From Eledone cirrhosa (lineage: Eukaryota), in assembly GCA_964016885.1 (NCBI GenBank), contig OZ024743.1:335172001-335236000 (forward strand): a DNA stretch of 64,000 nucleotides. The letters run 5' to 3'. Positions within the stretch are counted from its first letter, which is position 1, and each line of letters starts with the position of its first letter. Below are positions 351 through 61,711 of this stretch, piece by piece. The notes below the pieces were generated by a model. That model was not told the origin of the DNA and searched no databases. It was given only the letters and a program-made list of their open reading frames with translations. Position numbers and translations under genes: made by a program.

Positions 351-814
351 TTAGAAACACACAGATACATGCGGACACACACATATATACATGAATGCAT
401 CCGCACCCAACTGTGAGTTAAGGGTGCCAACTTCACCGATGTTGCTCAATGAATGACTGGGACAGACCAATTCAGTTTGAACCAGACTGAACCAGTATCA
501 GAGTTAAAAATACATTATGAAGAGAGAAGAAACATTTAGATATAATTAGTAGTAAAATGTATCATACCTAAACTGCTCCTAAATTCCTCGACTACGTAGT
601 TTCGTGGCATAAACAAAAACAATATATCAAAGATATAGAGTCCCTACGGCCTCGATATGAATACCCCCTCCGCCTCCGTGGTATTTTCTTCGTGGTTATA
701 GGAGGCTTAGCTCTGTTTCTCGACCGTTATATCGCGTGACTATCTCCCCCTCCGCCTTTTGGGATTCTTTCTCACGTCGTGTAGACGCGTTCTTGAGACT
801 AGTAAAATGAGGTA

Positions 815-902
815 TCCTCTTGATAAGTTGGCAGACCTCGCAGGGACTCTATATCTTTGATATATTGTTTTTGTTTATGCCACGAAACTACGTAGTCGAG
901 GA
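815..902 (+). ncRNA. Type I hammerhead ribozyme, U3-A8 core variant, long stem II loop
   Basis: tcctc TTGATAA gttggca...tgccac GAAAC tacgta GTC gagga: stem I tcctc/gagga, stem II tggca/tgcca, palindromic stem III, GUC triplet. Confidence 0.8.
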
Positions 903-1404
903 ATTTAGGAGCAGTTTAGTATGATACATTTTATTACTAATTATATCTAAATGTTTCTTCTCTCTTCATAATGTATTTTTAACTCTGATACTGGTTCAGT
1001 CTGGTTCAAACTGAATTGGTCTGTCCCAGTCATTCATTGAGCAACATCGGTGAAGTTGGCACCCTTAACTCACAGTTGGGTGCGGATGCATTCATGTATA
1101 TATGTGTGTGTCCGCATGTATCTGTGTGTTTCTAAATATATTAATAACTCCCTCTGGTCGAGCAATCTTTGAGGTGTGGGAACAACTGGAAAGCTTCCAT
1201 TACTCATACTTCTCGCCTTCTTCACTACCTCTTCTACGGCCTCGATATGAATACCCCCTCCGCCTCCGTGGTATTTTCTTCGTGGTTATAGGAGGCTTAG
1301 CTCTGTTTCTCGACCGTTATATCGCGTGACTATCTCCCCCTCCGCCTTTTGGGATTCTTTCTCACGTCGTGTAGACGCGTTCTTGAGACTAGTAAAATGA
1401 GGTA

Positions 1405-1492
1405 TCCTCTTGATAAGTTGGCAGACCTCGCAGGGACTCTATATCTTTGATATATTGTTTTTGTTTATGCCACGAAACTACGTAGTCGAGGA
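1405..1492 (+). ncRNA. Hammerhead ribozyme (second tandem copy of 815-902)
   Basis: Same motif 590 bp downstream. Confidence 0.8.
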
Positions 1493-57259: not shown

Positions 57260-57888
57260 ATTTCGTTTCTGAATTTGTTTGGCAAGATTCTTTATCTGAA
57301 AACGTGTGTTGAAACCGATATACTTTGGGAGGGTCATGTTGCCAATAAGAAACACACGCACCAGTGTAATTTTCACTTCAATTTATTATAATAAATTTAT
57401 AAATTTAGGAATTTATAAATTTCCGGTTGGTTGGTTGGTTCCACAACCAGATGATTGATTATATATTGTCAAAGTTCTTTCGTGACACATTCTATGACCT
57501 CTTCAGTGACTGGGGATTATTTTCTTTGTTTTTGTGCCACTCCTTTGTTCTGTCCTACGCCATCTTGTCTTTGTGTGTGTTGTGTGCTTAGTTTGCGCAT
57601 GTATTACATCCGGGTGTCTGTGTGTGTTTATATTCGTTTATTTATTCGTTTATTTACATGTTACTAGTTGGTTGTTTGTTCTATGTGCATGTGTGTTTTC
57701 ATTTTGTCCTTAATTGTAAGTTGTGATGTTGCTGTTCCACTCATGTTTTCTATTTATTTGGTTGGAGTTCATTTATGTTTATTGCCTCTGTGATGTGTCT
57801 AAACATTGCGTCTTTTCTGTGTGTAGATACAATTTTTATTTCTATGTTCTCTAATTTACCCTTATGTTCTATTTTAGCATGTTGGTAG
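57260..57888 (-). mobile_element. PLE 3' fragment (GIY-YIG end plus pseudo-LTR with HHR)
   Basis: [34 protein letters not shown] at 57468-57510: gtca CTGAAGA...GAAAG aa CTT tgac; related to 58115-58700 and 63922-64000. Confidence 0.8.
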
Positions 57889-58114
57889 AGTATATATATA
57901 TATATACACATACATACATACATACATATATATATATATATATATGTATGTATATATGTATGTATATATACATATATATATATATATATATATATATATA
58001 TATATATATATATATATACATATATATATGTATATACATACATACATACATACATACATACATACATACATACATACATACATACATACATACATACATG
58101 TGTATATATATATA

Positions 58115-60945
58115 TAACGGCCAATGAATTAGTTTTGCGAGGTTTTTGATATGAAATCGTGTGTCGAAACAAATATTGTTATACTTAGGGAGGGTCATAT
58201 GTGTGTAATAATATTGCCAGAATTAATAACAGAACACACTCACTGTTTGGTTGGTTTTCGCTTTTCGCTCCTGTGTCCTTTATATCAGTAATTTAATTTA
58301 TTCGGTCCTCAATGTTGCCATTGACTGACCAACGGTCAAACATACAGATACAATATAGACACAAACACATATATATAGTTTATCAAAGTTCTTTCGTTGC
58401 ACTTCTGCAACATCGTCAGTGGTACTATTGTTTCCTCCCGTTGCATTGTATTTTCAACGCCATCTTTATTTAGTCTGTTTATATATATATATTTTTTTTT
58501 TGTCATCTTTGCGCATGCGTGTGTGTATATTGTTTTGTTTGATGTGTGTTCGTGATTGGGTGACTGTGTATTGGTTAATGTATTCTATCTTTACTAGTGT
58601 GTGTTTATATGTGTTTGTTGTTATTGTGTATGTGTATGTATTTATTTATCTACTTATTTATTTATTTATACTTCTTTTAGGTCAGTGTTGTTTGTTTAGG
58701 TGTTGTTATTCTATTCATTTTTTCTGTTTAGCCTTGGCCTTCTGAGTTCTATTTCACTGGCCTCTCTGATTTGCCTATCTGCTGGGTCATTTCTATGTTT
58801 AGATATTATTCTAATTTCTATATTGTCTATGTTACCGTCGTGTTGTTGTCTGGCAAGTTCGTATAGTACTGAACCGTTTTTTCGTCCTTTTAGTTCCCCC
58901 AGTGTTGGTCTATCCTTTCACCTATGCTACGAGCTGTCTCGCATATGTATGTTGTTGGCATGTCTCTGCAAGTACCCTCTGTACATCTTATGCTATAGAC
59001 TACGTTTCTGGTTTTACAGTTTATCTGGGGGTTTACTTTACATATAATACATTTCCTATTAGTAGAGTGGGTTTTCTTAAAAGGGTAGGTTTGCTGATCA
59101 GGGTTTTATGGTAGTTCCTGGCTTTTCTACCACCTTAATCTTTAAATGGGTCTTATCAGGACCTCTCTACACTGGTTAGCTAATTTCCCTCCAGGGGTAG
59201 CGTCCACAAACATGACACTCTGGTATCTCTTGTTGTCGTACCATGAGGTGGCTTTCCCTATCTTATGTCTAGCCCTCTCTAAGCTATTCCATGATTTGCT
59301 CCTGTAGAATGGGCAAATTCCTTTCATGTCCAGTTCTATGAAAGTCTTATACTTCTCCATGGCTCCTTCGTGTATGGGTTTAGCATAGTGTGAGTGGAGA
59401 ATTTGGGCTCTCGCGTCTATAGTGTTAATCCAGAGTTCTGTGTCTAATACAGGTAGTCTATTGTTATGGTGTTTGGAAGGGTAGTCGATAGTTACAGTTA
59501 TACTCTGGTGTATGGAATTAGCTATCTGCTGGATGCTTTCCATTGTGCTACGTTCTAAATCAAACTTGTTAGTGCTCTCTTGTGGGGATGTTCTTATAAC
59601 TATATTGATATCGTCTACGTGACGAGAGTACATGATGAGGTCTATGGAGCTCTCATTAAGGAGATATTTAAGTCTCCTTTCCCACCATACCATAAAAACG
59701 TTGGCAACGTCACCAGCTATGTTGACGCCAATGGCTGCTCCCTCATTTTGGATGTAGATCTTCTCGTTGAACTTGAATATGTGACCCTTTAGGATAGTTT
59801 TGATGCTAGCCCCTATTGCATGTGCGACCATTTTTCTTACCTGATCCTTGTTTTGGGGGGTCCGTATAGCTTTTGTCCACCCAATCCACTTTCCCATGGG
59901 AGTCTTTTTAGCCATTGAGGTTATGGGGGGGGGGTCTACCTCTTATGGGTCTACTAGGGCAGAACCGTCTAAGGTCATGGCTGTCTAGGTAGTCAGTGTC
60001 GTAGGTAAGTCTAAGTAGGAGGCCCAATTCGTCTGTGCCGACGTCGCAGAAATCCACCTCACTCTCAATGATCATCTCCACACATTTTTCCACAGAAAAA
60101 TCAATGTTAATGGATGGGTACAGTGATACCACATCCATGCTGCCTATTATGCAGTTGGATAGGTTCCTGTTTTTGTTGCACTCACTGATTCTGCTGAGGA
60201 GGTCCTCTGTACTGACACATACATCTGGATACATCTTGATTATGGGGCGTATAACCATTGAGAGGAAGTAGGAGATCCTGTAGTTGCTAGCTATATTTGC
60301 TCCGCATACAGGTCTTGTTGGTGGTCCTGTTGTCGGGTCGTCGACTGAGTTGTGGTCTTTGCGGAGCCCATACAAGGGTGGTATGCCATTGTTAGACACC
60401 TGGAAGTTGTTGGCAGTGCGTCTGCTTGTCTTTAGGATGTCGGTCCACATCATCATGTGAGCGTTGAGGATTTTCTCTCTCCCATCATGTATTTGCTGTG
60501 CCATTTCGCTCGTGTTGATGCTGTGGGGTTGCATAGCCTTGATGTAGTTCGGCATGCTATCTATTGAAATCTTACCAGACTTATCCGTGGGTAGGCATAC
60601 TACCTCGCCATCCCTTGTGCGCTGTTGGGCTAACCAAGCCTTCTACAGGTTTCCTCCCAAGTTGTTGGACCTCTGGTCTGCTCTGTCTCTTAGTAACCCG
60701 GTCTACTATTTGTCTAATCTTATTTCTAGCTATGGTGAACTGTGCCTCTGTCTCGTCATCTATTTGTTGTGGTATTCAAACTCTTTTGTTAAAGGGTAAC
60801 CTCGTAGGATAGATATTACCAATCTTATATGTTTTGTCAGCTGGGTTGAAGAATAGTTTCTCTACGGTTTTGTCATTATATCTATCGTCATAGTTGTGTG
60901 TGTTGATATTATTGTTATTATGTTGGTTGTTGTTGTTCCTATCAA
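58115..60945 (-). mobile_element. Penelope-like retroelement, RT plus GIY-YIG plus 3' pseudo-LTR with HHR, disrupted
   Basis: LYGLRKDH, TRPV, GSMDVVSLYPSI, QNEGAAIG, SRHVDD, LPVLD; CIICKVNPQINC, VVYSIRC...YICETARSIGER; HHR at 58381-58424. Confidence 0.92.
58381..58424 (-). ncRNA. Hammerhead ribozyme in the PLE pseudo-LTR (CUU triplet)
   Basis: tacca CTGACGA t gttgca gaag tgcaac GAAAG aa CTT tgata. Confidence 0.7.
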
Positions 60946-61711
60946 ACAACACTGACCTAAGAAAAGTATAAATGCATAAATAAATAGATAAATAAATAAA
61001 TACATACACAAGCACAATAACAACAAACACACACTAGTAAAGATAGAATACATTAAACCAATACACAGTCACCCAATCACGAACACACATCAAATAAAAC
61101 AGTATACAGACACGCAAGCGCATGCGCATAGAAGACAAAAAAACATATATATATATATAGTTAAAAGAATAGAGGTGTAACACACAAGTTATTATATATT
61201 GGTAAACGGAATAGAAAATGCTGACAAATTGTTCACAGTTGAAAAATGGTTTAATTAGGAATAAAAGAGTATTAGGAGTATTAGTAATTGTATGGGTTAA
61301 TATTCAGTTGTGGTTTTAAGTTTTTAAGTTTTTACTGTGAACAATTTGTCAGCATTTTCTATTCCGTTTACCAATATATATATATATATATATATATATA
61401 TATATATATATATATATATATAAACAGACTAAATAAAGATGGCGTAGAAAATACAATGCAACGGGTGGAAACAATAGCACCACTGACGATGTTGCAGATG
61501 TGCAACGAAAGAACTTTGATAAACTATATATATGTGTTTGTGTCTATATTGTATCTGTATTTTTACCGTTGGTCAGTCAATGGCAACATTGCGGACCGAA
61601 TAAATTAAATTACCAATATAAAATACACAGAAGCGAAAAGCGAAAACCAACCAAACAGTGAGTGTCTTCTGTTATTAATTCTGGCAGTATTACACAAATA
61701 TGACCCTCCCC
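60945..61711 (+). mobile_element. Inverted copy of the PLE pseudo-LTR at the 5' end, split by a nested insertion at 61158-61375
   Basis: Reverse complement of ~58190-58698; HHR at 61478-61521; nested element matches 21843 and has its own inverted tail. Confidence 0.85.

Follow-up and report, generated by a model that had tools for sequence, protein, structure and literature searches.

Tailed and tail-less ends are paired in inverted Penelope-like insertions of Eledone cirrhosa, consistent with twin-primed reverse transcription on one sense RNA

The window analysed here is a 64,000-nucleotide stretch of the Eledone cirrhosa genome (assembly GCA_964016885.1, 3.0 Gb; contig OZ024743.1, positions 335,172,001 to 335,236,000 of the forward strand), in which inverted copies of Penelope-like elements (PLEs) and of ribozyme-bearing repeats lie among (TA)n tracts. 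Copies were located by masked self-BLAST and direct reading of the sequence, and oriented by hammerhead scans together with open reading frame (ORF) and Pfam scans. The ten inverted structures listed in a first-pass annotation are all present and belong to nine families, named here with the start of each copy: A (351), B (1683), C (10157), E (25138), D (31724), F (41936), G (42602 and 49326), H (58115) and I (61158) (Table 1). All ten have an antisense left arm and a sense right arm, and are thus head-to-head, as that annotation had claimed; by simple arithmetic, random polarity would give this with a chance of ~0.001. It had also described all ten as oriented by ribozyme sense, which holds for the seven copies of families A, B, D, E, F and G. 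The hammerheads of A, B, D and F were found by scan, that of E by reading the motif in its unit, and those of the two G copies through a scan match in the homologous locus L298 and a by-eye reading in the first copy. The other three inserts (10157-10520, 58115-61711 and 61158-61375) are 3' ends of coding PLEs, in which hammerhead scans found no match. The polarity of the first and last comes from 3' ends of elements encoding reverse transcriptase (RT) and a GIY-YIG endonuclease, and that of 58115-61711 from a broken RT ORF.

Families C, H and I are coding copies of endonuclease-containing (EN+) PLEs, with an RT plus a GIY-YIG domain at the C-terminus. The element at 21844-25125 matches Pfam GIY-YIG (E 3e-7) and, weakly and below the cut-off, RVT_1 (E 0.0027). 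Its ORF at 22991-23464 contains a CCHH endonuclease motif and a CxxxxCxxC linker when compared with PMC8557442, which describes a CX2-5CxxC linker for Neptune, Nematis and Naiad (published work is cited here and below for the portions consulted). The corresponding region is degraded in family H, whose RT motifs were recognized by eye and gave no Pfam match; copies of family C extend into GIY-YIG homologs. Motifs suggest that these coding elements may be Neptune-like. Families A, D, E and F have the organization of non-long terminal repeat (non-LTR) retrozymes, consisting of non-coding tandem units (~590, 468, 421 and 317 bp, respectively) with a type I hammerhead in each; tandem units were not seen in B or G. 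The window ORF scan found no ORF of at least 150 aa within the units of A, D, E and F. Only family D matched Rfam HH9 (37.7 bits, under the gathering score of 52); the remaining Rfam matches, mostly microRNA-like ones to TA/TG repeats under the gathering score, were disregarded. Variants fixed across units, described below, are an indirect hint that the retrozyme units may self-cleave and form circular RNA in vivo. The family E unit also occurs in long head-to-tail arrays (contig C28, ~110.00-110.06 Mb; contig C4, ~351.91-351.93 Mb), which may be source loci or satellites.

In nearly every inverted copy the outer 3' ends differ: one is tailed (L) and the other tail-less (S), a rule absent from the first-pass annotation. 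For family D we parsed 128 loci, of which 37 were retrieved by DNA search, 78 were L-anchored and 13 S-anchored (the duplicate L098 was dropped). Ninety-two of the 128 (~70% of the copies sampled) are inverted, all head-to-head; the single tail-to-tail adjacency flagged in the parse was an 18-bp match in a neighbouring related insertion. The end-unanchored set gave a similar picture (26 of 37 inverted, plus one with a very short second arm), and families A, C, E, F, G and H share this polarity. Family D 3' ends lie at unit position ~53 (L) or 447/452 (S), ~70 nt apart. All 83 copies with two canonical ends combine one L with one S; a further five have a non-canonical second end, and four run past the retrieved stretch.

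A fair test of pairing was made with exact end matches on contig C1 from 0 to 143.8 Mb (97 L, 77 S), taking neighbours within 5 kb. This yielded 31 head-to-head L+S pairs, 2 S+S, 0 L+L and 1 tail-to-tail, where independence predicts 49% L+S. The tail-to-tail pair (L342) consists of two separate copies 2.2 kb apart; closer parsing confirmed both S+S pairs and added seven L+S. The other families were counted by eye, including the window copy except for H, whose query was biased to L. L+S made up 11 of 11 inverted copies in family A (20 distinct loci), 10 of 10 in G, 9 in C, 9 in H and 5 clear cases in E. The 21 inverted family F copies comprise 16 L+S, 1 possible L+L and 4 with non-canonical ends, and none is tail-to-tail when the 317-bp unit is used as reference. 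An apparent tail-to-tail copy of an additional family, J (L181), is actually two neighbouring inverted copies, and family B has too few intact copies outside the window for a count. Tails measure ~27-165 nt across families. A conserved fold shared by the tails of different families was considered and is not claimed (hairpins in D, E and A, weak in others). Either arm can exceed the other, the S arm being the longer in 27 of 83 family D copies, and L and S ends are each also found alone on non-inverted copies. Second arms of only ~8-22 nt are present at loci L069, L071, L051, L173, L187, L192, L206, L232 and L348; some apparently non-inverted copies are thus inverted copies with a micro-arm.

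The first-pass annotation had proposed that both ends of a cut (TA)n target, being self-complementary, prime reverse transcription on element RNA, with microhomology selecting the ends. In the window, 17 of the 20 outer ends adjoin at least 12 alternating TA bases. Among the three exceptions, the right end at 42600 lies inside a TA tract of the element itself that is common to the neighbouring copy, the end at 42922 is flanked by only ~5 TA-like bases, and the left end at 49326 has no (TA)n and is fused to the start of a Tc5/pogo transposase ORF, likely through a later deletion; the right limit of this last element is 49604 rather than 49570. End microhomologies with (TA)n are real, and range from 1 to 6 nt (6 nt at 351, 5 nt at 25138, the others 1-3 nt). 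They do not, however, select the ends, which fall at two fixed sites: the best TA-like tract within the family D unit (9 of 10 matching) serves as an end once genome-wide, as opposed to at least 1,869 exact matches for the L site. Position fixes the end site, and pairing at most tunes the start base. Nor is the symmetry of (TA)n supported as the basis of the layout: almost all copies have their two ends at different sites, and copies without TA flanks (L044, L053) have an identical layout.

The remainder of the proposal, that both target ends prime on element RNA and that the two complementary DNAs (cDNAs) are joined centrally, is likely to be right, and likely extends to non-coding multimers; it agrees with the central overlaps and with arms of one haplotype. 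Of 87 central junctions in family D, 34 contain 1-70 inserted bases (some perhaps reference mismatches); among the 53 without insertion, the arms overlap by at least 2 nt in 30 (random null 18%) and by at least 4 nt in 14 (null 2.4%). Target duplication was scored in 23 of 83 family D copies (shuffled mean 14.9, maximum 20), and a duplicated target motif in 8 of 10 informative flanks; in the window, (TA)n hides any duplication. Priming from both strands together with target duplication would imply nicks that leave 3' overhangs. The lengths of the two arms show no correlation (rho 0.15, p=0.17). Inner ends lie preferentially around the tail (S arms p=0.007, L arms p=0.08), but the two inner ends of a copy are not significantly often within 30 nt of each other (p=0.16). 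Clustering of inner ends at the ribozyme cut is not claimed: a few ends lie just 3' of the cut, but the count in its bin exceeds expectation only modestly (7 L and 9 S versus ~7 expected). The junctions at L212 and L190 hold foreign inserts of 70 and 25 nt, with inner ends at equal unit positions (231/231 and 455/455); these inserts are possibly RNA or DNA captured during joining.

Sequence variants indicate what the two arms were copied from. At shared polymorphic sites, mismatch between the arms of a copy was 2.8%, compared with 24.7% between loci of one subfamily. Mismatch was much alike for units compared in register (0.65%), off register (0.58%) and inside a single arm (0.52%); with no register effect, the idea that a heterogeneous multimer had been copied in register was rejected. 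Minority variants fixed in all copies at a locus showed an excess of A>G over T>C on the sense strand (31 versus 12, p=0.005), and none of the 31 fixed A>G changes follows a 5' G (background 16%, p=0.004); avoidance of a 5' G is the preference of ADAR. Sites recurring across subfamilies were A>G in 8 of 11 cases, and changes private to one unit were symmetric (48 versus 46). Variants unique among the sampled loci were fixed on both arms at 18 loci; the window copy of family D has one such variant in all five copies of both arms. At locus L164, eight A>G and one C>T occur in all 4-5 units over both arms. In a genome-wide pattern search, the exact A91G+A92G pattern was found at L164 only, and A96G+A108G at two loci only. 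An edit that arose in one RNA unit and is present in all units implies that a monomer was copied repeatedly at some step. The ADAR-like variants fixed in both arms therefore point to a sense RNA template, probably a circle copied repeatedly.

Head-to-head polarity, L+S pairing, arms that share a haplotype, short central overlaps or insertions, duplicated target motifs and fixed sense-strand A>G changes are the direct observations from which we argue. We propose that they reflect twin-primed reverse transcription on one sense RNA from two Penelope start sites, to which we assign a probability of roughly 0.7. A Penelope RT-endonuclease, likely a dimer, would bind the RNA tail and nick both strands of the (TA)n target in a staggered manner, leaving 3' overhangs. 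Each target 3'-OH would start cDNA at its own site, L or S, on the sense RNA, with 1-6 nt of pairing serving only to fine-tune the start base. For the ribozyme repeats, cDNA synthesis would run more than once around a single circular monomer, with strand displacement by the RT allowing both cDNAs to cross the unit boundary. The cDNAs would end at variable points, more often near the tail, and joining of their 3' ends, through microhomology or with small insertions, would leave each cDNA as the template for the second strand of the other. Among copies scored as non-inverted would be some where extension of one primer stopped after a few bases. More tentatively, and with somewhat less than even odds, twin priming may be the normal integration route of EN+ Penelope elements: a dimer on the tail would cut both strands and assign one start site to each DNA end, and on ribozyme circles two strand-displacing RTs would follow one another around one RNA molecule, in some cases ADAR-edited, so that every insertion would record a single such molecule. 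If true, RNA edits would be written into the germline over successive jumps.

Several points weigh against this proposal. The count of 83 L+S copies in 83 must be read with 79 of the parsed family D loci being L-anchored and thus blind to S+S, and two S+S copies and one possible L+L do exist. Much of the L164 editing is inherited and was not gained in the last jump: six of its changes (five A>G, one C>T) are common to L171 and L214, and A91G/A92G also occur in L204. A unique variant is one unique among the 8-52 loci sampled per subfamily, the A>G excess under strict uniqueness is not significant (14 versus 7, p=0.19), and family A has no excess (3 versus 2). Gene conversion, rolling replication from RNA to RNA, or source arrays that were themselves homogeneous could equally have produced homogeneous units. 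Searching the retrieved loci by tblastn with the window PLE proteins linked no coding partner to A, D, E, F or G; a genome-wide partner search was not part of this. In reads of other runs over window positions 352-835, no listed piece bridges the family A junction at 644-648, and for the edited stretch of L164 (L344 mapping) three contig sets gave zero depth, while one raw run supplied 3 reads that cover a portion; the copies tested by reads may be polymorphic. All our observations are of genomic sequence, with no transposition intermediate, RNA circle or expression among them. Finally, the anole protein showed no start-site difference between strands in vitro (PMC11167929), so the L+S asymmetry is so far unreproduced in vitro.

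The strongest rival retains twin priming but replaces the single circle with two sister RNAs, one per RT subunit, or with a long homogeneous linear multimer. It dispenses with two RTs working on overlapping RNA, has possible sources in long tandem arrays (family E on C28 near 110.0 Mb) and would suit both the inheritance of much fixed editing by sub-lineages and the dimeric action of hammerheads with a short helix III (PMC4209133). We consider it unlikely, because a symmetric two-RNA complex fails to predict strict L+S pairing, while variants unique among the sampled loci are fixed on both arms at 18 loci, two edit patterns are limited to one or two loci genome-wide, and unit differences show no register-specific inheritance. 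Less probable still is the suggestion in PMC8557442 that the one-sided tail arises by endonuclease resolution of a DNA intermediate and not from two RT starts. Craig et al. there regard resolution as most likely, it predicts one tailed and one tail-less end, and recognition by the D. virilis endonuclease requires the tail (cited in PMC11167929). The in vitro RT starts nonetheless coincide with the tail borders (PMC11167929), L and S each stand alone on non-inverted copies, and the longer arm can be of either kind (S in 27 of 83).

We rate as marginally poorer again the model offered in PMC3846280 for head-to-head palindromes, in which the inverted arm is produced by self-priming on an antisense RNA or by the first cDNA snapping back. 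At 8 of 87 family D junctions the unit positions of the inner ends differ by no more than 4 nt (by 0 at 5 of them), compared with ~2 for a uniform spread, and a minority of copies may be fold-backs. Snap-back as a general route was rejected: it would contain one arm within the other, and containment is broken in 16 of 83 copies, near the 21 (range 14-28) expected for independent lengths. In-register inner ends fall within 30 nt in only 8 of 77, the edits that became fixed are A>G in sense orientation, and the model leaves the two target-fused fixed ends unexplained. Assembly or fold-back chimeras, DNA-level palindromes, or two independent insertions in one microsatellite are the least credible of the alternatives, at odds of a few in a hundred. 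DNA rich in (TA)n is difficult to assemble, repeats cluster in the same tracts, and the tested junctions were unbridged in two read look-ups. Against this, the arms have different fixed ends and offset centres with overlaps or insertions and no (TA)n between them, and share one haplotype yet differ by private substitutions. Raw reads of two other samples also run from the family A S end into (TA)n (203 and 159 reads), and the same raw reads contain a strand-switch joint from 450 to 629 (direction unstated), with one start per run.

Table 1. Inverted and related insertions in the 64,000-nucleotide window. L, tailed 3' end; S, tail-less 3' end.
Feature	Position	Strand	Description
Family A left arm	351..648	-	~590-bp hammerhead unit; L end at 351 on (TA)n
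Family A right arm	644..1564	+	~1.6 units; S end ~165 nt short of L; 5-nt central overlap
Family A hammerheads, U3-A8 core	815-902, 1405-1492	+	Found by scan
Family B left arm	1683..2229	-	L end; hammerhead 1813-1878
Family B right arm	2230..3253	+	Start approximate; S end ~91 nt short of L; hammerhead 3147-3212
Family K, additional inverted copy missed by the first-pass annotation	7687..8176		Both ends on (TA)n, offset ~25 nt; polarity unassigned
Family J, additional inverted copy missed by the first-pass annotation	8776..10118		Both ends on (TA)n, offset ~85-90 nt; polarity unassigned
Family C left arm	10158..10303	-	S end; piece of the 3' untranslated region of a GIY-YIG PLE
Family C right arm	10305..10518	+	L end, 65 nt past S
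Non-inverted coding PLE (family I)	21844..25125	-	RT and C-terminal GIY-YIG, with stops and frameshifts; (TA)n at both ends; source of family I polarity
Family E left arm	25140..25813	-	~421-bp hammerhead unit, ~1.6 units; S end
Family E right arm	25812..26584	+	~1.8 units; L end 56 nt past S
Family D left arm	31724..32618	-	468-bp hammerhead unit, 1.9 units; S end at unit position 452; hammerheads 31951-31995, 32419-32463
Family D right arm	32616..34072	+	3.1 units; L end at unit position 53; 3-nt central overlap
Family D right-arm hammerheads	32797-32841, 33263-33307, 33731-33775	+	Found by scan
Family F left arm	41936..42341	-	317-bp unit, 1.3 units; L end; U3-A8 hammerhead 42099-42145
Family F right arm	42341..42600	+	S end within a TA tract belonging to the unit; hammerhead at 42419-42465
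Family G copy 1 left arm	42602..42830	-	L end; hammerhead with long stem II
Family G copy 1 right arm	42827..42922	+	S end
Family G copy 2 left arm	49326..49446	-	Ends ~15 nt short of S, at Tc5/pogo ORF start
Family G copy 2 right arm	49460..49604	+	Start approximate; L end on (TA)6 at 49605
Family H left arm	58117..60945	-	5'-truncated coding PLE; broken RT ORF 59142-60642; degraded C-terminal GIY-YIG-like region; L end
Family H right arm	60943..61711	+	S-type end ~70 nt short of L; interrupted by nested family I insertion
Family I left arm	61159..61335	-	L end; 3' end of the PLE family with coding copy 21844-25125
Family I right arm	61329..61373	+	S end 43 nt short of L

Other features of the window were also recorded. 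Non-inverted single copies of family A (7273-7608) and family C (10855-11070) have (TA)n on either side, and hammerhead motifs of other families occur at 26835-26893 (minus strand) and 44476-44527 (plus strand). Hammerhead-like cores were seen by eye near 10730 and 12217, where the scans gave no match. The window copy of family H lacks ~195 bp of the RT ORF at ~59370 that other copies retain. About 8 kb to the left of the window (L067:525-1799) lies a family B copy with 99% identity to 1683-3253, an identical central junction and an internal deletion, which may have arisen through local duplication of the DNA or through re-copying of an inverted insertion. A 4-kb (TA)n array at 3254-7271 contains interruptions that shift blockwise from TC to TG to AC, as though segments of opposite orientation had been put together. 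The transposase ORF adjoining the second family G copy belongs to a Tc5/pogo-type DDE remnant at 48092-49340 (Pfam DDE_1, HTH_Tnp_Tc5). At 54043-54191 there is a near-perfect 149-bp inverted repeat without TA flanks, which we take to be similar to a miniature inverted-repeat transposable element. A 323-aa ORF at 62372-63343 (minus strand) has Cys/His motifs and no Pfam match, and presumably resembles the N-terminus of a non-LTR retrotransposon.

The insertions bear the signature of EN+ PLEs, an inverted, 5'-truncated, head-to-head copy with a tail at one end. Head-to-head layout and bias, the one-sided tail and (TA)n targeting are already published, as are the U3-A8 hammerhead variant (PMC4209133), the proposal of a circular template for retrozymes (PMC4209133, PMC7229834) and the view of retrozymes as non-autonomous PLEs (bioRxiv 10.64898/2026.07.22.740005). 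We found no publication that describes near-obligate L+S pairing as PLE twin priming, or editing barcodes in retrozymes, in a search outside which most subscription journals and supplements lay. How PLEs form their tandem and inverted structures is, according to PMC8557442, an unresolved question. The L+S rule links two start sites known in vitro to the two arms, offers a simple account of how the second strand is made and can be checked in an existing in vitro system. The fixed edits are evidence at the genomic level that animal retrozymes use PLE machinery and, as has been proposed, a circular-RNA template. In practical terms, exact end rules are obtained for annotating families with thousands of copies.

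Among EN+ PLEs (Penelope/Poseidon, Neptune, Nematis, Naiad), the tail is frequently at one end only (PMC3846280, PMC8557442). These elements and the present families are alike in the inverted 5'-truncated copy, mostly head-to-head, the one-sided tail, the (TA)n bias, and RT with GIY-YIG in coding copies. They differ in that L+S is here counted as near-obligate, tails measure ~27-165 nt as opposed to 30-40, inversion affects ~70% of the family D copies sampled, and each of the two arms can be multimeric. The anole Poseidon protein PAc nicks and extends both strands in vitro, has two RT starts bounding the tail and is predicted to dimerize (PMC11167929). Its target-primed reverse transcription resembles our reconstruction in these two internal starts at the tail borders, in the AT-rich target and in priming not set by homology, but the two sites were not tied to the two arms of an inverted insertion and starts did not differ between strands.

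Metazoan non-LTR retrozymes share the tandem non-coding units of a few hundred bases, the type I hammerhead, the proposed circular-RNA template and the proposed mobilization by PLEs (PMC7229834; bioRxiv 10.64898/2026.07.22.740005). The word "inverted", however, appears nowhere in the main text of PMC7229834 and only in a reference title of the bioRxiv text consulted, whereas here inverted multimers with PLE ends and fixed edits are direct genomic signs of PLE-type insertion and repeated copying. In twin priming of LINE-1 (Ostertag and Kazazian 2001, as described in PMC12016303), both target strands likewise prime on one RNA, giving a 5' inversion and central joining. The second primer there lands at variable internal positions, cDNA overlap is small (median 12 bp where present) and the rate is ~20% (PMC12016303), in contrast to the two fixed adjacent starts, the lack of poly(A), the arm overlap of hundreds of bases and inversion as the majority outcome seen here. 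The Eledone cirrhosa insertions thus do not follow the LINE-1 form of twin priming, and work like twin priming in another form.

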